A stretch of DNA of 61,448 nt. Source: an uncultured Anaeroplasmataceae bacterium. GTDB lineage: Bacteria; Bacillota_I; Bacilli_A; Acholeplasmatales; Anaeroplasmataceae. The translations under genes and the position numbers were made by a program. Of the stretch, positions 15,840-57,213 are shown piece by piece (position 1 is the first letter of the stretch; each line of letters opens with the position of its first letter). Location of the stretch: positions 1-61,448 of the forward strand of contig CAZQOM010000001.1 of the NCBI GenBank assembly GCA_964595145.1. The letters are read 5' to 3'. A model generated the notes under the pieces. The model was not told where the DNA came from and searched no databases. It saw only the letters and a program-made list of their open reading frames with translations.

Positions 15840-15884
15840 CTCAGTAGTAGTATGGTCTACTAGCTTAGTGCTTATACAAAAATA

Positions 15885-16097: not shown

Positions 16098-16111
16098 AAT
16101 TGTCTCCTCCT

Positions 16112-16141: not shown

Positions 16142-18812
<2,671 letters not shown>

Positions 18813-18824
18813 ATCATCACCTAC

Positions 18825-20330: not shown

Positions 20331-20344
20331 ACATTTATCCTTTC

Positions 20345-20863: not shown

Positions 20864-20864
20864 A

Positions 20865-21410: not shown

Positions 21411-21453
21411 TTTTCTTAATTCATTGTCTAAAACAATGATCCTTTCTCTTATC

Positions 21454-21735: not shown

Positions 21736-21754
21736 TTTTTTATTTCTCCTTTAA

Positions 21755-24131: not shown

Positions 24132-24352
24132 CTTTTCTTCACCTCTTCTTATATTTTTTACCATGATTTTTTAATCATAGTACTTCATTAAAATTATATC
24201 ACAAACACAATAAAATAAAAAGATAATATTTTTACTTATTTTGTTAATTCTTCACTTACAAATAATACTTAAAATTAAAAAATTATTAGATAAAATAAAA
24301 AGGATAACCTTAAGCTACCCTAATTATCATTTATTTTATAGTAATTATACTA

Positions 24353-26601: not shown

Positions 26602-26624
26602 TTTATTTACTTCCTTTTCTTTTT

Positions 26625-36766: not shown

Positions 36767-36778
36767 ACCTTAACCTCC

Positions 36779-39089: not shown

Positions 39090-41408
39090 GTGAAAACTGA
39101 AATAGATTTAATAAAAACTAGTAAAAATAGACTTATTCGTGTTATTGCGGCAGAATTTGATTATTATCCAATGCATTCTCATGCATACACAGAACTATTA
39201 ATAGTCTTAAAAGGCAGCACAACTCTTATACTTAATTCTAAAACATATCAATTAAATGAAAAAGATGTTGTAATTATTAATCCAAAAGAATTACATCATT
39301 TAAAAAGTGATTCCTCTTGTATAATATTATCTTCTTTTTTTAATGTTTCTACCTTTTTAGATGATAAACAAAATGAAAAAATTATTTTCGACCTTAATTC
39401 TTGTGAATATCCAAATAATCCTAACTATGAAAATATTAGATATTTTATTTACAGTATAATAAGATTAAATAGTCAAAATAACGTAAATGCATATTATAAT
39501 ACTCGTGCAATTTCTTATTCTTTATTTGCTCAACTTGTAAATAATTTCAAAAATGATATATCTTCTTCTACTACCTCAAAAAATGAAGATGATACTATTT
39601 CTTTAATTACCTCATATATAAATGAACATTATTCTGAATGTTTATCATTAAGTCATATCTCAAATGTTTTTAAATATAGCGAATCACACGTTTCTAAAGT
39701 GTTTAAAAAATATCTTAATAAAACCTTCATCCAATATTATGACACTTTAAGAGTTAATTATTCAATTGATGATTTAACTTTAACAAATAATTCTATTGAA
39801 GAAATATCCTATATTCATGGATTTGATTCATCAAGAAGCTATGTTAGAGCATTTAAAAATGTTTATAATTGTTATCCAAGCGAATATCGTAAAAATAATA
39901 ATAAAAATAATGAGGTTTCAATCAGTGATAGTAATAATCTTTTAAAAGAAGTTTTAGATATTATTATGGCAAAATATTTAAGATATATTAAAAGAAAAAA
40001 TATTAAAGAAACTGTAAGAACAACTAAAGAATTAATTACAATTGATGGATTAAATAATTATATTAAAGTAAATAATCCTTCTAAAATGATTATTAGACTT
40101 GGTAATATAAATTTCTTATATAATGCGAGTATAATTTCTGAACTTAAAGAAATTCAAAATGAAATGAAATATAAATATATCGAATTAACTTCAATTTTTC
40201 ATCAAACTCAAAGATTATATAAAATAAATTCAAATGAAATAATGCTTAATAAGCCTATGATGGATAACATTGCTAAAATGATATATGATTTAAAGTTGTC
40301 ACCGTATTTTAAATTTAAATATAGTATATTTTCTGAATCACCTGATTTAATTACATTTTTTTTGAAATATTTTATAAAAAGTTCACCATATCAATTTAAT
40401 GATATATTAATATCTATAAATTATGAACATGATATTGAATATACAAAAGAAGAAAAATATACATATACTTATAAAATAATCACCTATTATAAAAAACTTA
40501 GAACATTTTTTGGAAATAAAATCAGATTTATTTCACCTTCAATTTTAAGTATAGAAGACTACAAAACTGCAATATCTGTTGATAGAGGTCATAATGTATT
40601 TGATTACTATTCTATCAATTATATAGCAGCAACAAATAATATAATAGCTAAAGATCCAGATCAAGTTAAAAAATTTATCGATGAATTAGATAAAATATCC
40701 CCAACAAAATTAAATAATATTTTATTAGAAAATATTAATTTTACTAATCATGTAAATTTATTAAATGATACTTTATTTAAATCATCTTATCAATGTAAAA
40801 ATATAATAGATATTTGGGAGAATATATCTGCATATGTAATGAATAATATGTTTGATATTACTATAGAAAACTTTTTCGATAATAATCCATATTTAGGATA
40901 TAACGGTTATTATACGTTTAATTATACAAAAAAAGCATCATATTATGCTAATCTATTTTTATCGAAACTTAAAAATAAAGTATTAAAAAAAGGTAAAAAT
41001 TTCATTGTTACCTTTGATAATGATAAAATAGTAATATTGATTAATAAATATCTTCATTATTCTGAATTATATGCTGAAAGTGAATATTTTGAATTAACAG
41101 ATCAAGATAGATACAGTTGTTTTGCAAAATATACAGACATTGATTTTATATTTGAAATTTCAGGATTAGAATATCAATCAGCAAGAATAAAAACAACCTA
41201 TATTAATAAATCAAGCGGTTCTTCTTATGATATATATAAAGAAATATCTAAACAAAATATATTAACAAATGATGAATTAAATCAAATGAAAAATTTATGT
41301 GTACCTAAGTTTAAAATAGAAATTTCAAAAATAAATAAAGGTGTATTAAAAATAGATTCAACAGTAGAACCTTTAGAAACAAAAATAATTGAAATAACTT
41401 TAAGTTAA
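39090..41408 (+). CDS. AraC-family regulator (cupin plus HTH_18) fused to a C-terminal domain of about 480 aa of unknown function
   Basis: It starts at a GTG after AAGGAGG. The cupin region is YPMHSHAYTELLIV. The AraC HTH region is ...IEEISYIHGFDSSRSYVRAFKNVYNCYPSEYRK at about aa 170-270, followed by about 480 further residues. Confidence 0.8.
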   Translation: MKTEIDLIKTSKNRLIRVIAAEFDYYPMHSHAYTELLIVLKGSTTLILNSKTYQLNEKDVVIINPKELHHLKSDSSCIILSSFFNVSTFLDDKQNEKIIFDLNSCEYPNNPNYENIRYFIYSIIRLNSQNNVNAYYNTRAISYSLFAQLVNNFKNDISSSTTSKNEDDTISLITSYINEHYSECLSLSHISNVFKYSESHVSKVFKKYLNKTFIQYYDTLRVNYSIDDLTLTNNSIEEISYIHGFDSSRSYVRAFKNVYNCYPSEYRKNNNKNNEVSISDSNNLLKEVLDIIMAKYLRYIKRKNIKETVRTTKELITIDGLNNYIKVNNPSKMIIRLGNINFLYNASIISELKEIQNEMKYKYIELTSIFHQTQRLYKINSNEIMLNKPMMDNIAKMIYDLKLSPYFKFKYSIFSESPDLITFFLKYFIKSSPYQFNDILISINYEHDIEYTKEEKYTYTYKIITYYKKLRTFFGNKIRFISPSILSIEDYKTAISVDRGHNVFDYYSINYIAATNNIIAKDPDQVKKFIDELDKISPTKLNNILLENINFTNHVNLLNDTLFKSSYQCKNIIDIWENISAYVMNNMFDITIENFFDNNPYLGYNGYYTFNYTKKASYYANLFLSKLKNKVLKKGKNFIVTFDNDKIVILINKYLHYSELYAESEYFELTDQDRYSCFAKYTDIDFIFEISGLEYQSARIKTTYINKSSGSSYDIYKEISKQNILTNDELNQMKNLCVPKFKIEISKINKGVLKIDSTVEPLETKIIEITLS

Positions 41409-41499: not shown

Positions 41500-41946
41500 T
41501 TAATGATTATATGCTTCATCATAATTTATACCTACAAGCATTACTTTACCTTTATATGATCCTAATATATCTAAACATTTTTTCTCTTTTATTTGTTTTA
41601 TAGCTCCACTTGCTTCTTTATTCACCTTTAATTCAATTATTATTGCAGGAACTATTCCTTTTGGTATAAATACTATATCAGTTCTACCTGATATTGTTGA
41701 TGCTTCCTTTAATACATAATGTGTTTCTAATAGTGGTAAAAATGTTAATACTTTTAGGGCTGCATCTTTTGAATTTATTTCTGTTATATCATTATCAAAT
41801 CTATCTATGCTTACTCTTTCTGATTTTCCATTATATAAATCTAATGATTCAGAATATAGGTTATTATCCTTAAATTTTAAATAATTTTTTATAGCCTCAA
41901 TTGTTGATGTCTTTGTCCAGTAATTACCAAATCTTCTTCTTGTCAT
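41500..41946 (-). pseudogene. 5'-truncated remnant of an AAA-ATPase-like / PD-(D/E)XK (PDDEXK_9, DUF1703-type) gene
   Basis: Only the C-terminal nuclease-like module is present (GRTDIVFIP...IIIELKVNK...AIKQIKEKK). Full-length family members have a large N-terminal ATPase-like domain. The upstream in-frame sequence (..GHDDTYNPKTVVEA) is cut off by TAA codons at about 41990. Confidence 0.6.
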
Positions 41947-42039
41947 TGCTTCTACTACTGTTTTTGGATTATATGTATCATCATGTCCTTAATATTAGGA
42001 TATCATATTTTAACATAATAATCTATAAAAGATTAAAAA

Positions 42040-42075
42040 GAACCTATTTTTATAAATAGATTCTTATATTTTACT
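42040..42075 (-). terminator. Rho-independent terminator ending the pectin ABC/GH28 operon
   Basis: A 12-bp stem (aagaacctattt / aaatagattctt, 1 mismatch) is followed by UUUUAAUC on the minus strand, directly after the GH28 stop. Confidence 0.55.
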
Positions 42076-42076
42076 T

Positions 42077-43615
42077 CTAATTTTCTATAAATTCTTTTAC
42101 AAATTTTTTTATATATTTTTCTTTTTTCAAACCTTCAAATGACACATTATTTAATTTAACATTATCTACGTAATTAAATAATAAACCTTCACCTACTAAA
42201 GGACCTACACCATCCATCATAGCAGCTGTACCTGGAGTAGGATTAGATGCATATTTAAAATTCACATTATCAATTGTAATAGATTTAATAGGTGCTTCTG
42301 GTAGGCCATAAAATGCTCCTGCAGCTACATTAACGTTTTCACAATTAATATTTTTGAAACAAAAATCACCTAAATATGGTGTTCTATCATCTACAGGTAG
42401 TTTTTCTTTTGTTTGAACATATTCAGTATGTCCATCTGGATCACAAAAATAAAACATATTAATTACAAGCGGTGTTAATACATCTTGCATTTTAATATTT
42501 TCAAAAGTAATTCCACTTATAATTGCGTCCTTACCTCTTCCTCTTCTTGTTTTAATACGAAGACCTCTGTCTGTTTGATTAAATAGACATTTAGAAACAT
42601 TAATATCTTTTATTCCACCGCTCATTTCACTACCTAAAACAACTGCACCATGGCCGAAATTCATTGAACAGTTTCTAATATTAAAATTAGATGATGGTTT
42701 TTTATATTTTCTACCCATATATATTTTTCCTGCTTTAATCGCAATACAATCATCACCAACGCTAAAATATACACCTATAATATCAACATTATCACAAGAT
42801 TCAGGATCACAACCATCTGTATTAGGTGAATTTTTAGGACTTATTAATTTCATATCAATAAACCTAATATCACTAGAAAAATATGGATGTAAATTCCAAG
42901 ATGGTGTATTAGTTACAGTAACACCTTGAAATGAAATATTTTCACAGTGATTTAAAAAAACACCTCTTGGTCGCCAAGCTATTCTTTTAGTTCTAACGTC
43001 TACCCACCAATCAGCATTATGAGCATTACCATCAATAATACCTTTACCAATTATTTTTACATTTTGAACATTAATACCAGTAATAATACTTGCAAAACAA
43101 TCTAAAGGATTTCCTTCCCAAGAACCTAAATTATATTCATCTTTTTCATCTGTTGTATAGGTCATACCTGGTAATATAGGATAATTATTTCTGTCAATAT
43201 CACCAATTAATCTTGCATTTGCTGCAAGTTCAATAGTAATATTACTTCTTAATAATAATGGGCCAGTATAATAATTACCATCTGGTATATAAACTCTTCC
43301 TCCATCAGGACAAGCATATATACATGCTTGAATAAAATTAGTATCTAATGTAATACCATCACCTTTAGCACCAAAATTTTTAACATTCAAACACACATAT
43401 TCATCATCAGTTATAACTTCTTTTTCAAAATCATTTATTTTAATTAAATATTTTGTGTTAGGAACTAAATTATATAATGAATAAACATTAGTAGTGATAT
43501 TTTCTTTATAAAGTACATCATTTAAATATATATCATATTTATTCGTTTCATATATATCATTATTATTTAATTCAATTGTTATACTTGTAGAACTTTTAAA
43601 TATTATATCAAACAT
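42077..43615 (-). CDS. GH28 polygalacturonase-family enzyme (probably exo-acting, intracellular) with an N-terminal FN3-like domain
   Basis: GH28 signature residues are present: NTDGCDP, GDDCIAIKAG, GHGAVVLGSE and RGLRIKT. It also has FGAKGDG. There is no signal peptide. Confidence 0.85.
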   Translation of the reverse strand: MFDIIFKSSTSITIELNNNDIYETNKYDIYLNDVLYKENITTNVYSLYNLVPNTKYLIKINDFEKEVITDDEYVCLNVKNFGAKGDGITLDTNFIQACIYACPDGGRVYIPDGNYYTGPLLLRSNITIELAANARLIGDIDRNNYPILPGMTYTTDEKDEYNLGSWEGNPLDCFASIITGINVQNVKIIGKGIIDGNAHNADWWVDVRTKRIAWRPRGVFLNHCENISFQGVTVTNTPSWNLHPYFSSDIRFIDMKLISPKNSPNTDGCDPESCDNVDIIGVYFSVGDDCIAIKAGKIYMGRKYKKPSSNFNIRNCSMNFGHGAVVLGSEMSGGIKDINVSKCLFNQTDRGLRIKTRRGRGKDAIISGITFENIKMQDVLTPLVINMFYFCDPDGHTEYVQTKEKLPVDDRTPYLGDFCFKNINCENVNVAAGAFYGLPEAPIKSITIDNVNFKYASNPTPGTAAMMDGVGPLVGEGLLFNYVDNVKLNNVSFEGLKKEKYIKKFVKEFIEN

Positions 43616-43616
43616 A

Positions 43617-44204
43617 CTATACCGCCTTCATTTCTCTATTATATTTTATACGCTTATGTAAATCTAAAAGAAGATTTTTTAAAAATAAGAATACAAAATC
43701 AACAATAATATAGCATAATGCATAAGTAAATGGTTCAATACCTGACCCTTCAGCTGTTCCAAATAAATCTAAAACAAGTCCATGTTCGCTTAACCAAATA
43801 GTAATAAAGAATAAAATAATAGATAAAATGAAATGATATCCTAAATTAATAAATAAAGAAGGAATACCTTTTACATTAACCATATTATATTTATATGTAT
43901 TATTAACTCTTGAATACATTAATCTAACAATAGGTCTAATCATATAATTCATAAATAAACCCATAAATAAGCCTAAAATTAGAATAATAACAATAGACAC
44001 AGTTAAATTTGCTGCAGCATCGCCATTTTCAATTTGACTAAAATCTAAAATGTCAGAGCTAATTATACTAAAGAAAACGGCAGCTGCCGCTGCCCAATAC
44101 TTTAGTAAAAGAATAATTAGCCATGACGGAACCTTAGAAACTTTATCTAAAACACTAGAGTTTTGTTCACCTATGATTTGTTCTTCTTTTACTTTTTTAC
44201 TCAT
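43617..44204 (-). CDS. Hypothetical 4-TM membrane protein (195 aa)
   Basis: The ORF shares 1 nt with the upstream gene (TAATG) and ends 1 nt before the GH28 start. It has four hydrophobic segments and no recognisable motif. Confidence 0.7.
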   Translation of the reverse strand: MSKKVKEEQIIGEQNSSVLDKVSKVPSWLIILLLKYWAAAAAVFFSIISSDILDFSQIENGDAAANLTVSIVIILILGLFMGLFMNYMIRPIVRLMYSRVNNTYKYNMVNVKGIPSLFINLGYHFILSIILFFITIWLSEHGLVLDLFGTAEGSGIEPFTYALCYIIVDFVFLFLKNLLLDLHKRIKYNREMKAV

Positions 44205-44851
44205 TAAAACTTTACCTTTTTATAATTTCTATTATATTTGATAAATCCTAGAACACATCCAACTACAGAACAAGCCATAGCTAAAACAACTGATACAATT
44301 GACATTATAGTTGCAAAATCGAATGTATATCCACCACTAATATTATGTCCACCTTGATCAAATGGTATAGTACATAAATAATTAGAATAGAATATCTTTT
44401 GAATCCAGAATATACCACAAACTACTATTACAGCAGTACATAAAGTTGATGTAATAACAGTTCCTAAATTTCTTTTTGAAGATAATGTAACACCATTAAA
44501 GATATTAATACATCCCATTAAGATAAGTAAGAACATTAATAATCCTGAAAAGTCAGCTTCCTTAGCAACTAATACTACACCATCAACTATAACTTCATGT
44601 TTTACTAAGAATAAAACTTGACTATGGAATCCTAAAAAGAAACCAATAAATAAACCTGGTAAGGCAACCAATATACCTGCAAGTTTACAAGGATTATATT
44701 TAAATGAATCAATAAAGTTATACCAAATACCATATAAATAAGCTAAAAATTTATTATTAATTTGTTTTGGTTCCTTACTTGCATTTTTATTAATAGGTTC
44801 TTGATTAAGCTCAGTAGTTTCTAAAACTACATTTTCATTTTTTTCTTCCAT
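44204..44851 (-). CDS. Hypothetical 4-TM membrane protein (215 aa)
   Basis: It starts 8 nt downstream of the ATPase gene. It has a hydrophilic N-terminal tail, four TM segments, and a loop of about 30 aa before TM4. No motif was recognised. Confidence 0.7.
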   Translation of the reverse strand: MEEKNENVVLETTELNQEPINKNASKEPKQINNKFLAYLYGIWYNFIDSFKYNPCKLAGILVALPGLFIGFFLGFHSQVLFLVKHEVIVDGVVLVAKEADFSGLLMFLLILMGCINIFNGVTLSSKRNLGTVITSTLCTAVIVVCGIFWIQKIFYSNYLCTIPFDQGGHNISGGYTFDFATIMSIVSVVLAMACSVVGCVLGFIKYNRNYKKVKF

Positions 44852-44859
44852 TTTAGCAC

Positions 44860-45987
44860 CTACCTAATTCTAACTTCTGTTTCTTTATCATAGAATAACA
44901 TTTTTTCAGCCTTAAAACAAGCTTTAATAGTTTTTTCTGTGATATCATCTTTACCATTGATTTTAGCAGTAATTTTTTCTCCACCAAAGAAACCATATAC
45001 TAATTTATAAGAACCTAAGAATTCATAATAATCTACATCTAAATCAAATATTTGTTTTTCATTTTCTTTTAATGTAATATCATCAGTAAATACATAATCT
45101 GGTCTTGAAGCCATTACAACTTCCTTTCCAGCATAATCCTTTAAAATTGCAGATTGTTCTTTTGTAAGACCTATTTCATTACCAGAAACATGAATGAATT
45201 TAGTTACTTTATCATCGATATGTCCATTATAGAAGTTACATGGAGGAGTACCAATGAAACCAGCAACGAATAAATTTTCTGGATATTCAAACATTTCTTT
45301 TGGTGTTGCGATTTGTTGAACATATCCATCTTTCATTACAACAATTCTTGTAGCTAAAGTTAAAGCTTCAATTTGGTCATGTGTTACATAAACAAATGTA
45401 GAACCTAATCTATCATGTAATTCAGTTAATTCTTTACGCATTTGACCTCTTAATTTAGCATCAAGATTTGAAAGTGGTTCATCAAGTAAGAATACAACTG
45501 GGTCACGAACTATAGCACGACCAACAGCAACTCTTTGACGTTGTCCACCAGATAATTGTTTAGGCTTTCTATTTAAATAAGGAACTAAACCTAAAACTGT
45601 TGCAGCATACATAACTTGTTTATGAATAAAAGCTGGATCTTTTTTTCTAATTGTTAATGAGAAAGCAAGATTTTGATAAACTGTCATGTGAGCATATAAT
45701 GCATAATTTTGGAAAACCATCGCAATATCTCTATCTTTAGGAGCAACATCATTAACCTTCTTACCATTAATAATTAAATCTCCTGTAGAAATTTCTTCAA
45801 GTCCTGCAATCATACGAAGTGTAGTAGATTTACCACAACCAGAAGGACCAGCTAAAACGATAAATTCTCCTTTTTCAATACTTATATTAAAATCATACAC
45901 AGCATGAAATCCATTAGGATAAATTTTATTAACATCACGAAGTATAACGTCATAAACTTTTTCATTTTGTAATTCTTGTTTTTCCAT
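44860..45987 (-). CDS. MalK/MsmK/MsmX/UgpC-type sugar ABC ATPase with a C-terminal regulatory (TOBE-like) domain
   Basis: Motifs are GPSGCGKST, LSGGQRQRVAVGRAI, FLLDEPLSNLD and VTHDQ. The length is 375 aa. Confidence 0.93.
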   Translation of the reverse strand: MEKQELQNEKVYDVILRDVNKIYPNGFHAVYDFNISIEKGEFIVLAGPSGCGKSTTLRMIAGLEEISTGDLIINGKKVNDVAPKDRDIAMVFQNYALYAHMTVYQNLAFSLTIRKKDPAFIHKQVMYAATVLGLVPYLNRKPKQLSGGQRQRVAVGRAIVRDPVVFLLDEPLSNLDAKLRGQMRKELTELHDRLGSTFVYVTHDQIEALTLATRIVVMKDGYVQQIATPKEMFEYPENLFVAGFIGTPPCNFYNGHIDDKVTKFIHVSGNEIGLTKEQSAILKDYAGKEVVMASRPDYVFTDDITLKENEKQIFDLDVDYYEFLGSYKLVYGFFGGEKITAKINGKDDITEKTIKACFKAEKMLFYDKETEVRIR

Positions 45988-45989
45988 TG

Positions 45990-46589
45990 TTATACCCCCT
46001 TAGAAACATCTTGTGTAGCCATATAATTAGCATATCTTTTTGCTTTAATAATACCGATAATACCTGCAGAAATAAATAATGTAGCAGTTAAAGCTAATAA
46101 TACAATAGCAATTATACCTCTAACATAACCATTTTGTGGTAAATAAGCTTCAGTAATATAAGAACCAGTAATTGTTGGACCTAAATGTTCTTTAACTTCA
46201 ACATCTTCTGGATTTGCTAAAAATCTACCATACCAAACCATAATTTGAATAGGACACCAGAATATTCTAGCAACACATACAGCACCAATACCACATAATA
46301 CATAACTATATTCTTTAGAATATGCTTTTACTTTTTCAATAGATAAAAATCCAAATAATAATATAATTATATTACCTAAGATTTTAATTATAACAGAAGC
46401 ATTCCAAACAAGTGTATTTAAACTTATAAATGCAGCAAGTACACTACAAAGAATCGCTCCCATACCAAGTTTATAAGATAAAGAATTAGTACGATATCTA
46501 AGCATTTGACCTTCAATATCATGTTCATCATAATAAATCTTTTCAGATGTAGATTTTACTTCTTCATTATTTTCTAAATTATTAAGCAT
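45990..46589 (-). CDS. Hypothetical 4-TM membrane protein (199 aa)
   Basis: It overlaps the upstream gene by 8 nt and ends 2 nt before the ATPase start. Its architecture resembles the 215-aa protein at 44204-44851. Confidence 0.7.
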   Translation of the reverse strand: MLNNLENNEEVKSTSEKIYYDEHDIEGQMLRYRTNSLSYKLGMGAILCSVLAAFISLNTLVWNASVIIKILGNIIILLFGFLSIEKVKAYSKEYSYVLCGIGAVCVARIFWCPIQIMVWYGRFLANPEDVEVKEHLGPTITGSYITEAYLPQNGYVRGIIAIVLLALTATLFISAGIIGIIKAKRYANYMATQDVSKGV

Positions 46590-47310
46590 TTACCTCAACC
46601 ATCCTTTCAGAAGATTGTTCTAAAGTTTCATTAGATTCAACACTTTTTAAAGTTAATTCCTTTTTAGTATCTAAATATCTAAATACATTGTATGCAATTA
46701 ATGCACCACTAGCAACGATAAATAATACTGTTATAACAATAAAGATAAGTAAAGGTGTTGAATTAACATAAAATGCAGATGTATCTCCATTTAAGAACAT
46801 AGCAGCAGCTTCATTATAATTATCGCTATTACCTAAAGAAGCCCAGTTTAAAGTCTCATAATTAGCATTAATATCACCAACGCAAATTGCCATAAATGCA
46901 ATTGCAACAATACCCATTATAATACAAACACTTGGACATGCAATACCAGAAACTAAATTAGAAATATAATATTTCTTTCTAGTAGCATTTGCACAAATAA
47001 ACATAATAGCTACCATTACTAATGAAACAACACCAAGATATAAAACTATATTATTTGCCATTTGTAGATTTGCATTAACATCAAACATTAATCCATATAA
47101 ATCTGCATAAGCAAAATCAGTTTTTTTACAAAATGTATTTAAACCAGTTAAAATAGTAGGTTTTCCAGTAATAAGGAAATCTTGAGTATATTCAACAGCT
47201 ATTCTATTATAAGTTGTCATAAAAAAACAAGCTATTAAAATAAATACAAAACTGAAAACTGCAAATAAAATATAAAACAATTTTGCATTTTTCTTTAAAA
47301 ATTGAGTCAT
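46582..47310 (-). CDS. Hypothetical 4-TM membrane protein (242 aa from MTQFLKK)
   Basis: AGGGGG lies 6 nt upstream of the ATG at 47310. The longer track form (to 47373) would include an intercistronic hairpin. It has two extracytoplasmic loops of about 45-60 aa. Confidence 0.7.
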   Translation of the reverse strand: MTQFLKKNAKLFYILFAVFSFVFILIACFFMTTYNRIAVEYTQDFLITGKPTILTGLNTFCKKTDFAYADLYGLMFDVNANLQMANNIVLYLGVVSLVMVAIMFICANATRKKYYISNLVSGIACPSVCIIMGIVAIAFMAICVGDINANYETLNWASLGNSDNYNEAAAMFLNGDTSAFYVNSTPLLIFIVITVLFIVASGALIAYNVFRYLDTKKELTLKSVESNETLEQSSERMVEVNA

Positions 47311-47340
47311 ATTAAACCCCCTAAAATATAGTAGTGGTAA

Positions 47341-47362
47341 GGAAGACAGAAACCTGTCTTCC
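47341..47362 (-). other. Intercistronic 9-bp hairpin after the substrate-binding-protein gene (candidate attenuator or mRNA-stabilising element)
   Basis: ggaagacag-aaac-ctgtcttcc is present. No long U-run follows on the minus strand. Confidence 0.4.
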
Positions 47363-47391
47363 ATTACACACATATAAATCTTTTAAATTAA

Positions 47392-49506
47392 TTATTTTCC
47401 TAAATAATCGTTATAGAATGTTAAATATTTAGCATCAGAAGTTGCCCATAAAGCTCTTAATTGATCTTTAGTTGTTGATTCCCAACCATGATTAATTACT
47501 GCTCTCCAAGCTGTATCTCCTAAGCCTTGTTTCCAGAAATCAACTAATTCAGTAATATCTGTAGTTGTAGCATTTTCTGAATAATATGCAGGAACAGTAG
47601 CACCAAATCCAGCAGTACGAGCTGTAGTAGCACAAACTAATGCACCAGAACTAATTGCACTTAATACATTATTTAAACCTTTTTGACCAACAGGGTGAGT
47701 AACTTGGTAATCTAAACCATCAGAACGAACATGACCAATACCTTGAGTAGAACCAATAGCATCTCTCATAAAGTCATTCCAACCTAATTTAGAAGCATTA
47801 ATTGCAGATTGAACAGCTAATTTAATTTTTGGATAAGTTACACCAGCAACAGTAATAGTACCATCTTGATATTCACTTGGACCATAATCTTGTAATTTAG
47901 CTCCTTCTTCACCATAGAAATAGTCAATTAATTGACAAGAAGCAATAATTTGTTCTTCATCAGTATCTTTAAATACTACTGAACCAGCAGATTTAAATGC
48001 ACGAGAATCTTCAGTATATCTTGTATATAGATATTTTTCTGAATTAATGTAGTTTTCTTCCCAAACAGTTACTGGAGGTAATACAGGTCTTAAACCATTA
48101 TATTTAGAAGATGAAGTACCAATACCTGTAGTTGCATCTAATTTATTATTAACAACTTGTGTAGCATTATAGTCATAAATCATTAAAGAAGCTCCAGCTT
48201 CACCAGTTAAGTATGAATAATAATAAGTGCCGGCTCCGCCACCTTTTTCATCCCAACCATCAATGATTAAGCCTTCTTGTTTTAATTGATGTAATCTATC
48301 TAAAGCTTCTAAACCTTTTTCACTAGTTCTTAAGTCAACTAATTTACCATTATTATCATAATATAAATAATCTTTTTCAGAAGTTAAACCACGAACACCC
48401 CAAATTTGAGCTAATTGAAGAATTGTGATAACACGGTTATTAGCTTGTCCACGAGGTACAATACCTTGAACACAATTAGCTTTTCCATATAAATAAACTG
48501 AGTTATTAACAGCACAACGCATTAATGCGATCATATCATCTGTAGAATAACATGCTTTTTCAGAAGTAAATACTTCAGAACGTTTAGTATATTCACCAGA
48601 AGTCATATAAGCAGCATCAATATAAGCTCTTAAAGCTTCAGTATAAGTTTTACCATTTTTAACTTCTAAAGCATTTTGAGCTGCAACTGGGTTAGTTGCT
48701 TTTTTAACAGTTAAATCTTTAGCAACACCATTATCAGAAATAAGAATCTTATAATCCTTTGTTGTGTCAATGAATGGTTCATAAGCTGTAGCTTGAGCTG
48801 CAGTTTCATCAAACTTAGGATTTTCTTCATCTAATAATTTTTCAACTAATTCAGTATTGAAAATAAACATTTTTTCAATTGTATCTAGACCATCGAAATA
48901 TGGTGCAATATAGAAATCACCATTAGCATCTGTTAATTCACCATAAACAGATGGATGTTCTTGGAAGAATTTATATAAATTAGGCATATATTGTAAATAA
49001 TCTGCTAAATTTACTAAATTATTATCAGTTGCATATTTAACAGCATTTACAGAGTTAGTCATCATAATATCGATATCTTGGATATTAGTTGAAGAACCGA
49101 TTGCAGTATAAATATCATCTTCTTTTGTTTTTGTATAAGAATCTTCAGTAAAATCCCAAACTGAATCGTGGATAGTAACTCCTAAATTAGTTTGAACTTG
49201 TTTCCACATTGGTAATAAATCTTTCTTAGAATATGAATTACCATCGATTGGGTTAGCATATGTTGAACCTAATTTTGATTCATTACCAGTATATGTAACA
49301 CCTGATTTTCCTTTATAGTTTACATACATATTAACTGTTCTACCATTTAAACGTGATGTAGTATCAAATTTATCAACAGTTGGTAACGTAACAGTTCCTC
49401 CTCCTGTAGGTGGTTTAACAGCAGGTCTTGATGTTCCACCGCCACAGCTTGCTAATGTTACAACTGAAAGAGCAGCAACACCAGCTAAAATTAATTTCTT
49501 TTTCAT
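47392..49506 (-). CDS. Large (704 aa) lipoprotein, extracellular solute-binding protein of the CUT1 / LplA-like class
   Basis: The lipobox is VTLASCGGG. It lies directly downstream of the LplB/LplC-type permeases. It is unusually long for the class. Confidence 0.75.
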   Translation of the reverse strand: MKKKLILAGVAALSVVTLASCGGGTSRPAVKPPTGGGTVTLPTVDKFDTTSRLNGRTVNMYVNYKGKSGVTYTGNESKLGSTYANPIDGNSYSKKDLLPMWKQVQTNLGVTIHDSVWDFTEDSYTKTKEDDIYTAIGSSTNIQDIDIMMTNSVNAVKYATDNNLVNLADYLQYMPNLYKFFQEHPSVYGELTDANGDFYIAPYFDGLDTIEKMFIFNTELVEKLLDEENPKFDETAAQATAYEPFIDTTKDYKILISDNGVAKDLTVKKATNPVAAQNALEVKNGKTYTEALRAYIDAAYMTSGEYTKRSEVFTSEKACYSTDDMIALMRCAVNNSVYLYGKANCVQGIVPRGQANNRVITILQLAQIWGVRGLTSEKDYLYYDNNGKLVDLRTSEKGLEALDRLHQLKQEGLIIDGWDEKGGGAGTYYYSYLTGEAGASLMIYDYNATQVVNNKLDATTGIGTSSSKYNGLRPVLPPVTVWEENYINSEKYLYTRYTEDSRAFKSAGSVVFKDTDEEQIIASCQLIDYFYGEEGAKLQDYGPSEYQDGTITVAGVTYPKIKLAVQSAINASKLGWNDFMRDAIGSTQGIGHVRSDGLDYQVTHPVGQKGLNNVLSAISSGALVCATTARTAGFGATVPAYYSENATTTDITELVDFWKQGLGDTAWRAVINHGWESTTKDQLRALWATSDAKYLTFYNDYLGK

Positions 49507-49533
49507 TTTCTTTTCCCTTCCTTTTTTTCTTTT

Positions 49534-50421
49534 CTATTCTTTGACTCCACCAACATTAACACCAGCAGCAAAATACTTTTGTATTTTTGGGTAGATAATG
49601 ATGATAGGAATAATAGAACAAACTAATAATGCATATTGCATTGAATATGGTGAATAATTCACCTCGGCTGCAGCCTGATTATCTTGCATTACATCTTCTA
49701 ATACACGACGAATATATACTTGTAATGGTTGATCTTCAGGTCCTAAAAGCATTTGAGCCCATAAATATCCATTCCATCTAGATATTGCATAAAACATTGT
49801 TACCGTTGCAATTGATGCTTTAGACATTGGAATATAAATTTTAGTTAATAATTGGAATTCTGTTGCACCATCAATTGTAGCAGCTTCTTCTATTTCTGTT
49901 GGAACAGATGAGAAATAATTTCTTAATAAGATAATATTAAATGCATTAAATCCTAAAGCAATAATATACATATATCTATTATTAACACCTAAATTAACAA
50001 AGTTATTATATGTAGGAATCATACCAGCACTAAACCACATTGTAAATACTAGCATGAAATTAAATCCTCTACCAAACATTAATCTTGTTTTTGATAAAGC
50101 ATATGCACCAGTAATCGCAACAAGCATTGAAACTACTGTACCATACATAGTATAGAATAATGTATTACAATATGATAACCAGAATCCTGATTCACTAAAT
50201 ATTTGCATATATGCATCAAATTGTAATCCACCACCAGTTCCATTAGCACCAGCCATAGGATTTGGCCATAAATATACTTTACCAGCATCTACTGCAAATT
50301 TACTTGATACAGATGCAGATAGTAAATATATAAATGGATATAAACATGCTAAGGCAAATATTGTTAAAATAACATACGCAACAATTTTAAATATAACTTC
50401 AGAACGGTCTAATCTTTTCAT
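49534..50421 (-). CDS. Carbohydrate ABC transporter permease (LplC/YtcP-like, BPD_transp_1)
   Basis: It has 6 TM segments and an EAA-loop region IEEAATIDGATEFQLLTKIYIP. Confidence 0.88.
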   Translation of the reverse strand: MKRLDRSEVIFKIVAYVILTIFALACLYPFIYLLSASVSSKFAVDAGKVYLWPNPMAGANGTGGGLQFDAYMQIFSESGFWLSYCNTLFYTMYGTVVSMLVAITGAYALSKTRLMFGRGFNFMLVFTMWFSAGMIPTYNNFVNLGVNNRYMYIIALGFNAFNIILLRNYFSSVPTEIEEAATIDGATEFQLLTKIYIPMSKASIATVTMFYAISRWNGYLWAQMLLGPEDQPLQVYIRRVLEDVMQDNQAAAEVNYSPYSMQYALLVCSIIPIIIIYPKIQKYFAAGVNVGGVKE

Positions 50422-50440
50422 AATTCAATCCCCTTTTCTA

Positions 50441-51460
50441 CTAGAATAATGAAGTAGATGATACCCTTCTACTAATTGCATTTGCTCCTAATACTAAGCA
50501 CATAGCAATTAATGAATTAAATAAGTCAGCAACAACACCAAGATTTTGAGCCGCACCACCAGAAATGGTTATTGTACTATTTTCAGCTCTACCCGAACAT
50601 CGATAAACAAATGTCGAAATAACTTCAGATGTTTCATATGATTTTTCTTGGCTTCCAACTAATAAAATAATCTTTTCATAACCAACATTTAATATTTGAC
50701 CAATACGCATAATAAGCATAATTGTTAATGTTGGAGCCATACCTGGTAATGTAACATATCTAATTTGTTGTAATTTTGATGCACCATCAATTCTTGCAGC
50801 CTCATAATTAGTAGGTGAAATAGCCATAACTGCAGCAAAATATACTATTGAACCATAACCAGAGCCTTCCCAAACACCTGAGATTTGGTATATAGGTCTA
50901 AAGAATCTTGGAGAAGCTAAAACATCTGTTTTAATATCAGTCATACCAAGATTTGCAAGTAATTGATTTATAATACCTGCTGAGTGTGTTGTAGTCTCTC
51001 TTTGACACCATAATGTAATAAGTGTTGTAACAACAACGGCTGAAACAAAGTGTGGTAGGTAACAACAAACTTGTAAAACACTTCTGTATTTTTCATTTTT
51101 AATTTCACTAAATAATAATGCTAGGAAAATTGGGATAGGAAATCCAAATAATAATCCATACATACTATTAACAAATGTATTTCTAAATGCACGCCAGAAA
51201 TCATGAGCAAATGATCCAGTAAATAACATCTTAGCATAGAATAAACCATTCCACTGATCATCTCTAAATTGTCCAGCTTCTTTCCATTTGAAACCTTGTA
51301 ATATACCAGCAATTGGTAAATACTTAAAAAGAATTAAGAAAGCTAGCATTGGAATTAACAATACATATAGCCTCCAATCCTTAGCTAATTTATGAAGAAT
51401 AATTTTCCAACGATCACGTTCAACTTGATCTACAACATTTTGATCAACAATTTTCTCCAT
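50441..51460 (-). CDS. Carbohydrate ABC transporter permease (LplB/YteP-like)
   Basis: The N-terminus LAKDWRLYVLLIPMLAFLILFKYLPIAG is typical of LplB-type permeases. The EAA loop is YEAARIDGASKLQQIRYVTLP. Confidence 0.88.
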   Translation of the reverse strand: MEKIVDQNVVDQVERDRWKIILHKLAKDWRLYVLLIPMLAFLILFKYLPIAGILQGFKWKEAGQFRDDQWNGLFYAKMLFTGSFAHDFWRAFRNTFVNSMYGLLFGFPIPIFLALLFSEIKNEKYRSVLQVCCYLPHFVSAVVVTTLITLWCQRETTTHSAGIINQLLANLGMTDIKTDVLASPRFFRPIYQISGVWEGSGYGSIVYFAAVMAISPTNYEAARIDGASKLQQIRYVTLPGMAPTLTIMLIMRIGQILNVGYEKIILLVGSQEKSYETSEVISTFVYRCSGRAENSTITISGGAAQNLGVVADLFNSLIAMCLVLGANAISRRVSSTSLF

Positions 51461-52106
51461 CTTTTAAATCCCCTTTCTCTTCTTCCAAATCATCACTAAT
51501 TCTAAAATCAGTATCTTTTATTTCTTGACTTTTTTCTATCATATCTTTTTCTACATCAACTAATACTGTTTGTCCTCTTATACACATTACACCAACAATT
51601 AAAATTACAAAAGAAAATAAATTCCATGCCATAAAGGCTAAAAAATTGAATTGTTTTGTAAAAATCATAAATACAAGAGATAAACTTAATTGAGAAATTA
51701 AAATATCTATAAAACATAGTAACAAAGTGTAACGTATACTTTTAAATGTTTCTTTATAATTCTTATATTTAAACCATAATAGATTTATAGATAAGGATAA
51801 TAAAGATACTAAACTAGAGATAAACATCGCAACACCATAAGCATCCTTATATTCTTGATGCGGATTAAAAAATCTTCCACCAATCCATGTCGCAAGAACT
51901 AAAAACGGTGCTACAATAAGTCCTTTCCAATTCCACCTTGTTATAGATATAAACATTATCAATAGTGAACATGCAGTAGTCATTAAAGTTGCATTTATCA
52001 TAGTATTAAAAGCTACCATACCAACAGCCTCAACAATCACACCTATTACAATTAATAATGTCAAGTCAATTAACATATATTTTTTTATTTTCACAAAATA
52101 CCTCAC
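51444..52106 (-). CDS. Hypothetical polytopic membrane protein (up to 220 aa, about 5-6 TM, acidic C-terminal tail), first gene of the operon
   Basis: The ORF overlaps the LplB-like permease start by 17 nt. No motif was recognised. The start may be the internal MLIDL. Confidence 0.65.
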   Translation of the reverse strand: MRYFVKIKKYMLIDLTLLIVIGVIVEAVGMVAFNTMINATLMTTACSLLIMFISITRWNWKGLIVAPFLVLATWIGGRFFNPHQEYKDAYGVAMFISSLVSLLSLSINLLWFKYKNYKETFKSIRYTLLLCFIDILISQLSLSLVFMIFTKQFNFLAFMAWNLFSFVILIVGVMCIRGQTVLVDVEKDMIEKSQEIKDTDFRISDDLEEEKGDLKDGENC

Positions 52107-52185: not shown

Positions 52186-52214
52186 ATTATAACACTTTTA
52201 TTTTAATAAGTAAA
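52186..52214 (-). promoter_or_regulatory. Candidate sigma-A promoter of the pectin ABC operon
   Basis: The minus strand reads TTTACT (52209-52214), a 17-nt spacer, then TGT-TATAAT, an extended -10 at 52186-52191. Confidence 0.45.
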
Positions 52215-52298: not shown

Positions 52299-55200
52299 TT
52301 ATTTTAAGGTAAGTACCTTACTATTTTCATCAAAATTCCAAATATTTTCTAAATCATATCCTAAAGTATTTTTAATAAATTCTTTATCTGTAATACTTTC
52401 TTTGAAATATTCTGCAGTACTACCATAATCAGTTATATATTCACTATATGTAGCATAACAATTAATTACATAAGTAATACCACCATTTATTCTTGAAGTA
52501 TTTCTACCGATAATTGGACTACAATTCTTTAAAGCAATAGTAAATGGAGTTTTGTTGTATTCACATTCAAAATCACTAATTGAATTTGAAATTGAAATTA
52601 AACTATGACCATAGTTATAACCACCTAAAATACCACCAGCATATGTTTTAGCAATTATCTTACCTTCATAATAAACCTTATCAATAGTTAAAGTCATAAA
52701 TGATTGTCTATTATCAAATCTTCCAATAAAACCACCAACATATTGGTCTCCATCTTTACCAATATTACTCTTAACAACACAGTTTTTAATTTCTACTTCT
52801 AATTCTGTTGCTTGAGATTCATCTTGGATAAAACCAATAAGACCAGATGATCTAGAACCACTTATAATATGATTTTCATCATTTATAACCGAAATTGATG
52901 AAAAATAATTTTTACCTACACCAACTTGTCCTGCAATAGCACCAACACGATCAGAACTCTTTAAATCTATATTAGTAACTTTTACATTATGAACATATCC
53001 ACCAGACATAGTTCCTATAATACCAGATTTTTGAGCATCCTTACCTTCACTGTTAATTACAATGTTTTCAAAATTTAAATTCATTATAGTACCTTCAGAT
53101 ACTTTATAAATTAATGCAGGAGCACTTGTAGTAATATTAGTTAATTTATGACCATTACCATTTAATAATCCTTTAAATGATGCAGATGTTGTTTGCCAAT
53201 TAAATTCAGCAAAATCTAAATCAGTAGTTAAAGAATAAATTGTTGTACTATTTGTAGAATCAGTAAATAATTTATAAAAATCTTTTGTTGTAGAAATAGT
53301 ATTTAAAGTAACAGAATTAGTATATACATCTGATGTATGTGTTTTTGCATTATTTTCAACAACAGCATGAACATAATACGCTTCTTCATTTGAACATTCA
53401 ACGTTAAATGAAACAATATCATCAAAGAATTCAAACATTTTTCCATTTGTTTTTATTTCTTCTTTTGTTGCAGAAGCATTTTTTGATGTTAATACATATA
53501 TTTTACCAATAGGATAATCCATTTCAGCAGATAGATTAACACCATCACGGTTAACATATAATTCTAAATCTTTTGCAAAATCAACATTAAATGAAGGATT
53601 ACAAACAAATACTTGGTAACTATATTCATTAGTTTCACTAGCATCATTCTTTAATGAAACTTTATGTGTAACAGTATAAACACCTGCTTTAGATGTATAT
53701 ACGCCATTAACTTCGTATGCTTTTGAACTCTTAGTTTCTTGATATATATATGAAGTAGATAAATCATATAATGCTTTATCTAAAGCTTTACCTGAATAAT
53801 CAGATGAATTTGTAACTATTAATGATGGTTCATAAAATCTTTCATATTGATTCATAATAATCTTATTATCTACCACATTATTAACATATATATTACCAAT
53901 ACCAGGTTTATCAGCTACTACATTTAAAACAAATTCTTTTGTTTTAGAATAAGAACCACATTCTATTTCTGCTTTTAAAGTAACAGTTTTATCAACATCT
54001 TGTCTATTTACAGAAATAGTTATTTCCTTTGTTCCAGATACAGAACTTGAAATAGTATCACCAACAGATAATACACTTGGATCTGAAGAAATCCAATATA
54101 TTTCACAGTCAGCATAGTTAGATGGTGCTAAGAAGTTTTGATAAACTGCTTTAGAATTACAATTAACTCTTAATGAATCATATGCAGAAATAACGCTTAT
54201 TTCTTCATTTGTTAAATTTTCACCTATTTCTGTTGGTTCAAAATGATTGTACTCTTCATATCTAGTTTTAGTTAAATCAGCACCAATGTTAGAATTTTTA
54301 AATTCACCAGGAACTAAGTTTAAGAAACTTCCTAATTGAACAGAACCATCATCATTTCTCATTGTTTTATGAATTGTTGTATTAGCTAAGCCATTAGGAG
54401 CTTCTAACGAAACAAAACTTTCACTTGTTAACTCAAATGCTTCACCTTTTTTATCACTATATAAGCAAGATGCATCAATATTTTTATCAATTTTATAATA
54501 TTTATTTCCACCTGCATAGAATACTGAATTTTCTGTAGCTCCTATATAACGGTCAGGTTGTGCAGTTTTATTAGTTACATATGATAATAAGTTTGTATAA
54601 TTATTATAACTTTTTTCATCACGTGCAAGATCAAAATTACTTGATTCTGCTTCATTTGAAGCACTTGATGTTGCTTCAGCAGCTAATACTTTACCATTTT
54701 CATCAATTGCAGCACAGTTATTAAAAGTTGTACAGTTATTAACTGAAATAACACCAGGATTTGAATTATCACCAATACCATGTAGACGGTTATTAAAAGC
54801 AACACAGTTTTCTAATACTACATCACCTTTCATAGTACTACCACCAAGTTTAAAGCCTATACCATCACCATCACGTGTGATAAATCTTTCAACTCCAGAT
54901 TCATTAGTTTTTTCCATTAAAAAACCATTTTCAAAAGAAACACAGTTATATAAAAATACTGTACCTATATTACCACTATCAACTTTAGCAAATAAATCCC
55001 AACCATCATCACTATTTCTATAAGCAATACAGCCATCAAATACATTACCATAGCCAACTGTTAATTTAGCAGCAAAACCATCAGCATTTTCACCAAATGT
55101 TTCATCGTCATAATTATTATATGATGTACAGTTTTTAATTAAATTATAAGATGGCCATTCAGATATATTAGCAAATGAACCACTTGCACGACCTAATTGT

Positions 55201-55691
55201 AAACCTGTATCTCTATTTTCATGGAATAAACAATTTTCAATTATATTATGACTTCCACCAATATACATTCCGTTATCACCAGCATTTACTATTTCAATAT
55301 TATTAAAATGCCAATAATTACCATTTAATTCAATACCTCTATTTAAACTATCAAAAGCTTGTACACTAAAATCAAATATTGCAGCATCATTAGATTCATT
55401 AACAACATTTATATAATTGTGTGCATCTCCTGATTTATATGTAGTTATTCTTTTTGGAACCATATATCTACCAGGTAAAACCTTGATTGTAGTTCCTTTT
55501 TCTACATTGCTAAAAGCAGATATTATATCAAGAGGACTTTCTTCAGTACCTTTATTTGTTGAAATTCCAGTAGGACTAATATATACTGTTTTATTTTCTT
55601 CTACAGGAGTTTCTTTTTCGCTATCATTACATGAAGCAAGTCCTAAAATAGCTAATAATAGAGTAGGAATAATTAATAATTTCTTTTTCAT
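52299..55691 (-). CDS. Extracellular lipoprotein with an N-terminal right-handed beta-helix polysaccharide-lyase domain (PL9-like pectate lyase), central Ig-like region and a C-terminal GLUG-like repeat region
   Basis: The lipobox is ILGLASC, with the start MKKKLL at 55691 (AAGGGTGGA upstream). Beta-helix repeats include GENADGFAAK, NSDDGWDLFAK and DGIGFKLGG. The C-terminal FKGLLNGNGHKL is followed by G-rich repeats. Confidence 0.65.
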   Translation of the reverse strand: MKKKLLIIPTLLLAILGLASCNDSEKETPVEENKTVYISPTGISTNKGTEESPLDIISAFSNVEKGTTIKVLPGRYMVPKRITTYKSGDAHNYINVVNESNDAAIFDFSVQAFDSLNRGIELNGNYWHFNNIEIVNAGDNGMYIGGSHNIIENCLFHENRDTGLQLGRASGSFANISEWPSYNLIKNCTSYNNYDDETFGENADGFAAKLTVGYGNVFDGCIAYRNSDDGWDLFAKVDSGNIGTVFLYNCVSFENGFLMEKTNESGVERFITRDGDGIGFKLGGSTMKGDVVLENCVAFNNRLHGIGDNSNPGVISVNNCTTFNNCAAIDENGKVLAAEATSSASNEAESSNFDLARDEKSYNNYTNLLSYVTNKTAQPDRYIGATENSVFYAGGNKYYKIDKNIDASCLYSDKKGEAFELTSESFVSLEAPNGLANTTIHKTMRNDDGSVQLGSFLNLVPGEFKNSNIGADLTKTRYEEYNHFEPTEIGENLTNEEISVISAYDSLRVNCNSKAVYQNFLAPSNYADCEIYWISSDPSVLSVGDTISSSVSGTKEITISVNRQDVDKTVTLKAEIECGSYSKTKEFVLNVVADKPGIGNIYVNNVVDNKIIMNQYERFYEPSLIVTNSSDYSGKALDKALYDLSTSYIYQETKSSKAYEVNGVYTSKAGVYTVTHKVSLKNDASETNEYSYQVFVCNPSFNVDFAKDLELYVNRDGVNLSAEMDYPIGKIYVLTSKNASATKEEIKTNGKMFEFFDDIVSFNVECSNEEAYYVHAVVENNAKTHTSDVYTNSVTLNTISTTKDFYKLFTDSTNSTTIYSLTTDLDFAEFNWQTTSASFKGLLNGNGHKLTNITTSAPALIYKVSEGTIMNLNFENIVINSEGKDAQKSGIIGTMSGGYVHNVKVTNIDLKSSDRVGAIAGQVGVGKNYFSSISVINDENHIISGSRSSGLIGFIQDESQATELEVEIKNCVVKSNIGKDGDQYVGGFIGRFDNRQSFMTLTIDKVYYEGKIIAKTYAGGILGGYNYGHSLISISNSISDFECEYNKTPFTIALKNCSPIIGRNTSRINGGITYVINCYATYSEYITDYGSTAEYFKESITDKEFIKNTLGYDLENIWNFDENSKVLTLK

Positions 55692-55710
55692 TTTTCTATC
55701 CACCCTTTCT

Positions 55711-57147: not shown

Positions 57148-57213
57148 TTTTTTCTTCCTTCCTATTTCCAATTAATACAAAAACAATCAAGCGTTTTCAT
57201 AAAATATAAACCC

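Follow-up and report, generated by a model that had tools for sequence, protein, structure and literature searches.

Type I ATP-binding cassette (ABC) importers are built from five parts: a substrate-binding protein (SBP), a pair of transmembrane domains (TMDs) and a pair of nucleotide-binding domains (NBDs). The solved complex of the Sphingomonas A1 alginate system, AlgM1M2SS-AlgQ1/Q2, is reportedly a plain TMD2-NBD2-SBP assembly with no accessory membrane proteins. In Bacillus subtilis, the galacturonide importers YtcQP-YteP and YesOPQ are energised by the multitask ATPase MsmX, whose gene is unlinked and shared among importers (PMC5730181), and a 2026 review still presented pectin uptake by Bacillota as plain TMD2-NBD2 transport (PMC13501991). 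Here we analysed 61,448 nucleotides of DNA from an uncultured Anaeroplasmataceae bacterium (contig CAZQOM010000001.1 of assembly GCA_964595145.1, positions 1 to 61,448 of the forward strand; hereafter the window), which holds an operon for a pectin-type importer of the CUT1 family that also encodes five further membrane proteins, M1 to M5. In gut bacteria of Mollicutes-like, Erysipelotrichia and Clostridia affiliation, these five families proved to be locked into the importer operon, and none of them is annotated; we tentatively read them as additional subunits of the importer. Our literature searches found no description of this cassette.

The operon and its importer core

The operon comprises 10 open reading frames (ORFs) on the minus strand between 42077 and 52106 of the window, in the order M1-P1-P2-SBP-hairpin-M2-M3-ATPase-M4-M5-GH28. 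At its head lies M1 (51444-52106, 220 aa), a membrane protein with six transmembrane (TM) segments, followed by the CUT1 permeases P1 (50441-51460, 339 aa, MalF/UgpA-like) and P2 (49534-50421, 295 aa, MalG/UgpE-like) and by an oversize lipoprotein SBP (47392-49506, 704 aa). M2 (46582-47310, 242 aa) and M3 (45990-46589, 199 aa) precede an ATPase of the MsmX/MalK type (44860-45987, 375 aa), M4 (44204-44851, 215 aa) and M5 (43617-44204, 195 aa) follow it, and an exo-polygalacturonase-like GH28 (42077-43615, 512 aa) closes the series. M2 to M5 are tetraspans, i.e. proteins with four TM segments and both termini inside (N-in/C-in), and all five M proteins are unassigned as to family. The genes are tightly packed: M1/P1, M2/M3 and M4/M5 overlap by 17, 8 and 1 nt respectively, gaps of 2 and 8 nt flank the ATPase gene, and 1 nt separates M5 from GH28. 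All 10 minus-strand ORFs at these positions, the overlaps of 17, 8 and 1 nt and the gaps of 1-8 nt had been listed in an earlier note on this DNA, and we confirmed them. To judge from the sequence upstream (AGGGGG), M2 most likely starts at the ATG at 47310, as assumed there; its longest ORF extends to 47373, and residue numbers for M2 refer to that 263-aa version. For M1, the probable start is not 52106 but the GTG at 52094, behind a GAGG located 6 nt upstream. The window has a GC content of ∼27%, and the nearest relatives of its proteins are encoded in metagenome-assembled genomes (MAGs) of Anaeroplasmataceae.

The two permeases matched BPD_transp_1 (Pfam PF00528; 3e-11 for P1 and 6e-11 for P2) and carry the EAA loops EAARIDGASKLQQIRYVTLP (P1) and EAATIDGATEFQLLTKIYIP (P2); the motif EAA..DG...LP was found in 82/82 P1 and 88/88 P2 orthologues. 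The ATPase aligned over its full length with B. subtilis MsmX (6YIR, 1e-116), had AlgS as its third-best solved match (2e-101), and scored 430.6 bits with the NCBIfam model of the UgpC subfamily (cut-off 432). It possesses all catalytic motifs and the C-terminal regulatory domain, its match to OB_MalK being weak; Walker A/B, signature, D- and H-loops were intact in 81/81 core ATPases. The GH28 is PglA-like, lacks a hydrophobic signal-like stretch at its N-terminus, and is predicted to be a cytoplasmic enzyme.

The SBP has the lipobox LASC and the expected position in the operon, and it matched no Pfam or NCBIfam model. Its detectable solved relatives are AlgQ1/AlgQ2 (E 0.003-0.1), and similarity to these and to family-1 SBPs was weak and local (∼70-90 residues, E 0.003-0.006). 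It appears to be a cassette-specific family, distantly AlgQ1/AlgQ2-like, with a length of 637-901 aa across loci. Orphan paralogues of the oversize SBP, without neighbouring permeases, occurred in three loci (L039:497-2587, L075:9779-12187 and L085:10001-12055); the extra copy in L039 occupies the usual place of M1.

The core of the operon is an ordinary oligogalacturonide-type CUT1 importer plus a putatively cytoplasmic GH28. The earlier assignment to the pectin-type CUT1 class was borne out, as was the remark that none of the five extra proteins is needed to complete a canonical importer. The closest characterised analogue of this core is YtcQP-YteP/MsmX, which is likewise a type I CUT1 system and also combines an MsmX-type ATPase with a lipoprotein SBP and two BPD_transp_1 permeases. 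In contrast to the B. subtilis system, however, the ATPase gene is here part of the operon, four tetraspan genes bracket it and a fifth membrane protein gene stands in front, and the SBP is 200-400 aa longer and without a Pfam match. With the alginate system (PDB 4TQU) the operon has in common that both are CUT1 importers, in that case of long acidic uronate oligomers.

Conservation and properties of M1 to M5

Contiguous SBP-M2-M3-ATPase-M4-M5 genes were present in 76 of 125 fetched loci. Among the remaining 49, 44 were truncated at contig ends with the order unchanged; the other five were a frameshifted assembly (L036), the two loci L075 and L085 with orphan SBP paralogues, and two duplicates that were left out of the scan, L040 (of L039) and L042 (of L041). 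The order of the cassette was independent of whether M4, M5 or the SBP served as bait. The M4 profile identified 34 species-representative genomes, all of them Anaeroplasmataceae or Acholeplasmatales-type MAGs, with all 10 genes in the same order wherever the contig allowed. An exhaustive search with an M5 hidden Markov model (HMM) yielded 184 cluster representatives, and the five that were looked up across the range of E values (down to 1e-6) each lay in the same cassette. Scanning metagenome contigs with the SBP profile added 80 further loci with the same outcome; this SBP-based scan returned at least 490 relatives and revealed the cassette to be common in gut and rumen metagenomes. A plasmid tblastn search with the SBP, made in search of cultured carriers, gave no match. 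Orthologues of M1 occupied the matching position in 80 loci, and the only locus without M1 was L039, in which the second SBP copy lies ahead of the permeases. We encountered no M gene away from the cassette, even among the weakest M5 relatives examined. The loci range from 27% to 57% GC, and their source names include Anaeroplasmataceae, Erysipelotrichaceae, Candidatus Coproplasma (Clostridia) and Lachnospiraceae.

Because the arrangement recurs in 76 related loci, it lies far beyond chance; the gene-neighbourhood check suggested in the earlier note showed that the M2-M5 quartet does co-occur with the ATPase that it brackets. The tight junctions, which had been taken to imply translational coupling, are conserved too, with medians across loci of −8 nt for M2/M3, −1 nt for M4/M5, 0 nt for M5/GH28 and 10-13 nt on the flanks of the ATPase gene. 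Anaeroplasmataceae are wall-less Mollicutes. The idea that the extra proteins offset the missing cell wall of this group was rejected, since the cassette is also found in Erysipelotrichaceae, Candidatus Coproplasma and Lachnospiraceae.

Profile searches of Pfam, NCBIfam and PDB sequences gave no significant match for any of M1 to M5, in agreement with the earlier observation that none of them carries a recognisable motif. The Pfam and NCBIfam scans took in not only the window proteins but also their length variants and distant relatives and, member by member, whole families. Hydropathy and the positive-inside rule predict six TM segments for M1 and four, N-in/C-in, for M2 to M5, in which 11-15 Lys and Arg residues lie inside vs. 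0-4 outside; the four-TM prediction also draws on the structure models of M4 and M5 and on the loop-1 insertion described below. Structure prediction and Foldseek searches, another check that had been suggested, were performed for M4 and M5 and gave no significant PDB match. The AlphaFold2 model of M4 (predicted local distance difference test score, pLDDT, 81.5) has an amphipathic N-terminal helix, a four-helix bundle and a small β-hairpin in outer loop 1; the motif NYKKVKF in the C-terminal tail is conserved. Its matches were weak look-alikes of the TARP, GSG1L, claudin and MS4A kinds (best E 0.034, TM-score 0.41-0.53, 9-17% identity), and the modelled resemblance to claudin/TARP/MS4A tetraspans appears to reflect generic topology and is no evidence of homology. 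The model of M5 (pLDDT 79) consists of four long helices, and its cytoplasmic loop of 20 residues contains a short helix; Foldseek found no significant match for it in the PDB, and of FtsX/MacB-type structures it listed only FtsEX (8tzj), at E 5 and TM-score 0.18.

Several known families left traces below threshold. DUF2207_C (PF20990) was hit in this way by 16 of 28 M3 members (best E 0.005), 9 of 28 M2 members and 2 of 26 M4 members; this signal could stem from composition or from very distant kinship, and DUF2207_C is itself a domain without a known function. FtsX (PF02687) was matched by 2 of 26 M4 members, the best with an E of 0.001 and below threshold. FecCD (PF01032) was matched by three distant M5-like proteins at E 0.001-0.06, below the 26.5-bit cut-off, and Foldseek gave no BtuC-like match. 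Models of ECF transporters produced noise only (CbiM at E 0.004 for M1; ECF_trnsprt for 4 of 28 M2 and 2 of 26 M4 members at E ≥ 0.037), and the ATPase is of the MalK rather than the EcfA type. The label 'DUF1097' that PGAP gave to one Coproplasma M5 homologue was not reproduced with Pfam and was discarded.

Small polytopic membrane proteins of the DUF624/YesL type are encoded at the head of pectin-related CUT1 operons of Firmicutes, and M1 is like them in operon position and approximate size. Unlike them, M1 showed no recurrent match to DUF624: among the 37 Pfam families matched at E ≤ 10 by M1 and 27 orthologues (28 members in all), DUF624 (PF04854) was not one of the 25 most recurrent. Our searches found essentially no literature on the function of DUF624.

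The most conserved segment of M2, M3 and M4 is the cytoplasmic loop between TM2 and TM3 (mean conservation 0.70-0.76), while the outer loops of these proteins are least conserved (0.21-0.40). Near-invariant loop residues are R132, Y136, S138, N139 and L140 in M2 (the motif R132..Y136.SNL, in a protein with otherwise long, variable outer loops), E85, K88 and Y90 in M3 (E85..K88.Y90, besides an N-terminal RY..N...Y motif) and N128 in M4. M5 deviates from this pattern in that TM1 ranks highest (0.73; motif P.W...LK.W.A.A..F), with 0.55 for the cytoplasmic loop and 0.56 for the second outer loop, in which G155, E157 and P158 stand out; its conserved elements further include the 27-aa cytoplasmic loop, the E157-P158 pair and D169. 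Length variants fit the same picture. M4 orthologues of 414-461 aa from three Acholeplasmatales-type loci (L029:9164-10408, L037:8960-10339 and L038:4216-5601) have a β-rich insertion of ∼250 aa in outer loop 1, for which Pfam gave no match, and in L041 and L043 the cytoplasmic ends of M5 are extended by long tails that are charged or coiled. In L045 (7160-8251), an M3 orthologue bears an added N-terminal four-TM domain of ∼190 aa that is unlike any family of the cassette.

All five M genes are under purifying selection. In a comparison of the window with locus L005 (91-99% identical), dN/dS was 0.11-0.19 for M1 to M5 (0.11 for M1), 0.18 for the SBP, 0.07 for GH28 and 0.03-0.05 for P1, P2 and the ATPase. 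Mean Kimura distances over 44 complete, non-identical cassettes were 0.34-0.48 for the ATPase, GH28, P2 and P1, 1.06-1.07 for M3 and M5, 1.33-1.37 for the SBP and M4, and 1.74-1.92 for M1 and M2, i.e. the M proteins evolve two to five times faster than the ABC core. Selection and rates therefore mark M1 to M5 as real, constrained genes whose tempo is that of the SBP and not that of the transport core, and such a fast rate is typical of peripheral subunits rather than of a translocation pathway.

The earlier note had suggested that the 199-aa M3 and the 215-aa M4 are a paralogous pair, and this found no support: BLASTP gave an E of 0.30, and hhalign a probability of 2% vs. 93-96% for the P1/P2 control. 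Nor was reliable homology detected between any other two of the five families, with hhalign probabilities of 0.2-62% (alignments of 61-74 sequences; the best pair was M1/M4 at 62%) vs. 96% for P1/P2. Cross-family HMM matches of M2 or M3 members to the M4 model (E ∼1e-4) were too weak to use. The comparison covered all-vs.-all BLASTP and hhalign on both shallow and deep family alignments. The shared 'basic ... Y' tails and juxtamembrane N..KL motifs may point to a common binding partner rather than to common descent.

Possible roles of the membrane proteins

The earlier note left three readings: the M proteins could form a second, split transmembrane module served by the same ATPase, they could be accessory, gating or sensing subunits of the importer, or they could belong to an unrelated complex hitch-hiking in the operon. 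The last of these is disfavoured, because several bacterial classes share one and the same interleaved order and M genes were not seen elsewhere; the first two both survive. We lean, at a confidence that stops short of an even call, towards the second: M1 to M5 would be supernumerary subunits of a single oligogalacturonide importer. In such a machine, the oversize lipoprotein SBP would capture acidic pectic oligomers, P1 and P2 would form the channel and dock the MsmX-type ATPase dimer via their EAA loops, and the cytoplasmic GH28 would cleave the oligomers after import. The six-TM M1 and the tetraspans M2 to M5 would be obligate, cassette-specific subunits assembled around this ABC core. On the cytoplasmic face, contacts with the ATPase, with P1/P2 and possibly with GH28 would be made by their conserved TM2-TM3 loops and juxtamembrane tails. 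The outer loops, which evolve fast, would face the substrate side and could there bind the oversize SBP or steer long anionic chains; some lineages have one of these loops expanded into the β-rich domain of ∼250 aa.

We favour this reading because P1 and P2 hold EAA loops and the M families essentially do not (an EAA-type loop occurred in 3 of 338 M-family sequences, which is chance level), and because the M proteins outpace the ABC core in evolution. It is also supported by the fixed interleaved order over a wide taxonomic range, the lack of M genes elsewhere in the loci examined, the conserved coupling, the purifying selection on all five genes, the contrast between conserved cytoplasmic and variable outer loops in M2 to M4, and the position of the large M4 insertion in outer loop 1. 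An exploratory analysis of rate covariation, with the mean of the other families partialled out, gave 0.41 for M3-ATPase, 0.49 for M5-P1, 0.29 for M5-ATPase and 0.47 for M4-GH28, next to 0.55 and 0.50 for the control pairs P2-SBP and P1-ATPase; these values are weakly compatible with all parts belonging to one assembly. If they are true subunits, we would know of no earlier ABC importer surrounded by such a belt of supernumerary membrane subunits, and the reading of Gram-positive glycan uptake loci would change. The M proteins may also matter for the use of dietary fibre by uncultured Anaeroplasmataceae, Candidatus Coproplasma and Lachnospiraceae, given how frequent the cassette is in metagenomes from gut and rumen.

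Several points weigh against additional importer subunits. As far as we know, five extra membrane subunits would be without precedent among type I ABC importers. The M2 to M5 genes bracket the ATPase gene, not the permease genes, and no ORF in the loci scanned fuses an M family to an ABC component. The rate covariation is confounded by common phylogeny, and M1 and M2 gave no signal in it. YtcQP-YteP/MsmX has been described without extra membrane subunits (PMC5730181). Lastly, some operons contain a second ATPase gene, which fits a picture of two modules better.

These second genes are found in several high-GC, Lachnospiraceae-like operons (that of L101 is Lachnospiraceae by source name) and encode catalytically intact ATPases of the MsmK type. 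They are located before M1 (L089:157-1194, L118:6058-7095 and L104 from 283 onward), after M5 (L101:15878-16957, and 15411-16493 in both L117 and L119) or after GH28 (L125 from 19402 onward). Since the extra ATPases are 66-72% identical among themselves, but only 48-53% identical to the bracketed one, the sequences suggest that the bracketed ATPase has become specialised for its M2-M5 setting; core and extra ATPases differ at positions such as N94, K115 and A128.

The second ATPase genes lend some support to the main rival explanation, which we nevertheless consider unlikely. It holds that M2 to M5 form a hetero-oligomeric unit of 16 TM segments that is powered by the bracketed ATPase and stands beside the P1/P2/SBP importer, where it would provide a second translocation path or act on the outer face by mechanotransmission of the FtsEX/MacB kind. 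Operons with two ATPases are the expected look of two such modules, and single ATPase genes in most operons count against them. The genes are arranged symmetrically as M2-M3/ATPase/M4-M5 and are translationally coupled to the ATPase. A further argument is the conserved stem-loop after the SBP gene, described below, which together with the longest spacer of the operon sets [M1-P1-P2-SBP] apart from [M2-M3-ATPase-M4-M5-GH28]. Yet in none of the scanned loci did the M2-M5/ATPase block turn up without P1-P2-SBP.

What is known of FtsX and MacB (type VII) permeases provides a topological parallel: M2 to M5 are like them in having four predicted TM segments, N-in/C-in, a main outer loop between TM1 and TM2, which is large in some M4 proteins, and their best-conserved cytoplasmic elements between TM2 and TM3 and in the C-terminal tail. 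Charged residues are conserved in predicted TM segments as well, e.g. K35 and D169 in M5 and R108 in M3. In contrast, no kinship in sequence or fold was detected; neither Pfam nor Foldseek gave a significant match to FtsX, MacB, FecCD or ECF proteins, the M4 and M5 models had no significant MacB, FtsX or LolC match in Foldseek, and the partner ATPase is of the MalK type, not the MacB/FtsE type. The near-absence of an EAA-type docking loop (the same 3 of 338 sequences) and an evolutionary rate two to five times that of genuine TMDs likewise argue against a second set of permeases. A bolder version is more doubtful still: M2 to M5 and the ATPase would constitute a novel ABC module, a 16-TM hetero-tetramer that docks a MalK-type ATPase without EAA loops and works in tandem with the importer. 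Such a two-engine uptake machine would perhaps pass ATP-driven motion to outer domains, and these would deal with polymeric pectin or with the oversize SBP. Only if a second module exists would the system be categorically new.

It is improbable that the tetraspans, especially M4 and M5, serve as a scaffold that tethers GH28, and perhaps later enzymes of the uronate pathway, at the exit of the transporter, so that imported oligomers are hydrolysed at once. The M4-M5-GH28 junctions are the tightest of the operon (medians −1 and 0 nt), M4 and GH28 covary in rate (0.47), and M5 has its conserved 27-aa cytoplasmic loop and, in L041 and L043, the long charged or coiled cytoplasmic tails. A metagenome protein from the JGI collection (P0255, 402 aa) joins an M5-like domain to a KDPG aldolase in one gene call, but this fusion is probably a gene-calling read-through of neighbouring genes. 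Moreover, GH28 does not directly follow M5 in L086, L089, L101, L104 and L117-L119; M4 and M5 persist in these loci, in which the sequence runs on for at least 4 kb past M5. A scaffold also leaves M1 to M3 and the outer-loop insertion of M4 unexplained.

Least likely of all, and very improbable, is an unrelated membrane complex or sensor that shares the operon, e.g. to report pectin or transport status to a regulator: no functional motif links M1 to M5 to transport and an AraC-type regulator is encoded nearby in the window, but the interleaved order is invariant in 76 loci, the M families were never seen alone, flanking regulators differ between loci (AraC, GntR, HTH_3), and no signalling domain was found in any M family or length variant.

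Control signals and neighbouring genes

At the end of the operon, a terminator-like 12-bp stem followed by a U-run is present at 42038-42065 (minus strand). A promoter-like site (TTTACT-17-TATAAT with TG) lies upstream of M1 at 52186-52214 (minus strand) as a consensus match only; such sites are not enriched here, with 115 found against 116 expected from shuffled sequence. The stem-loop at 47334-47371 (minus strand), which had been noticed before, is real: it lies 3′ of the SBP gene in the 81-nt SBP-M2 spacer, is GC-rich (ΔG −26.1 kcal/mol, z −3.5) and has no U-tract, and in other loci a strong stem of different sequence is found at the same SBP-M2 position. This spacer is always the longest gap of the operon (median 83.5 nt across loci). 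The hairpin is probably an mRNA stabiliser or a partial barrier that divides the operon into two translationally coupled blocks.

The neighbouring genes are in keeping with a pectin locus: their products are a lipoprotein of 1139 aa that is Pel9A-like, a pectinesterase, UxuA, an SDR protein and an AraC-type regulator; in other loci, GntR or HTH_3 regulators are found instead. The 1139-aa lipoprotein, a Pel9A-like β-helix (52299-55718, minus strand), is encoded immediately upstream of the operon and is followed by a 486-aa Big_3 protein (55711-57171, minus strand); the two are likely to be surface pectate lyase machinery that feeds the importer. A Spo0A-type response regulator (58421-59203, plus strand; Spo0A_C 2e-43) is encoded in this genome, whose nearest relatives are the wall-less Anaeroplasmataceae, and has counterparts adjoining the cassette in L001 and L002. 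Between the terminator of the operon and the 772-aa AraC-type regulator (39090-41408, plus strand) lies a 148-aa PD-(D/E)XK_9 ORF (41500-41946, minus strand), which may be the remnant of a larger gene.

Further along, two proteins of 479 and 458 aa without a Pfam match (30572-32011 and 32762-34138, both minus strand) adjoin a second ABC system (34140-38848), which comprises BPD_transp_2 permeases and a double ATPase of 689 aa. Two tandem paralogues of ∼645 aa with Old-Yellow-Enzyme and pyridine-nucleotide-disulphide oxidoreductase domains (24664-28568, minus strand; 2,4-dienoyl-CoA reductase-like) adjoin UxuA and the SDR protein. A block comprising rpiB/LacAB, uracil phosphoribosyltransferase (UPRTase) and the F-type ATP synthase (16142-24164, minus strand) is syntenic with the cassette in L001, L003 and L039, where it lies downstream of GH28; in the window, ∼18 kb with the uronate pathway, the second ABC system and the AraC regulator separates the ATP synthase block from the cassette. 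A T-box leader (Rfam RF00230, 105.8 bits) is located at 9287-9480 (minus strand), upstream of the gene at 8202-9242.

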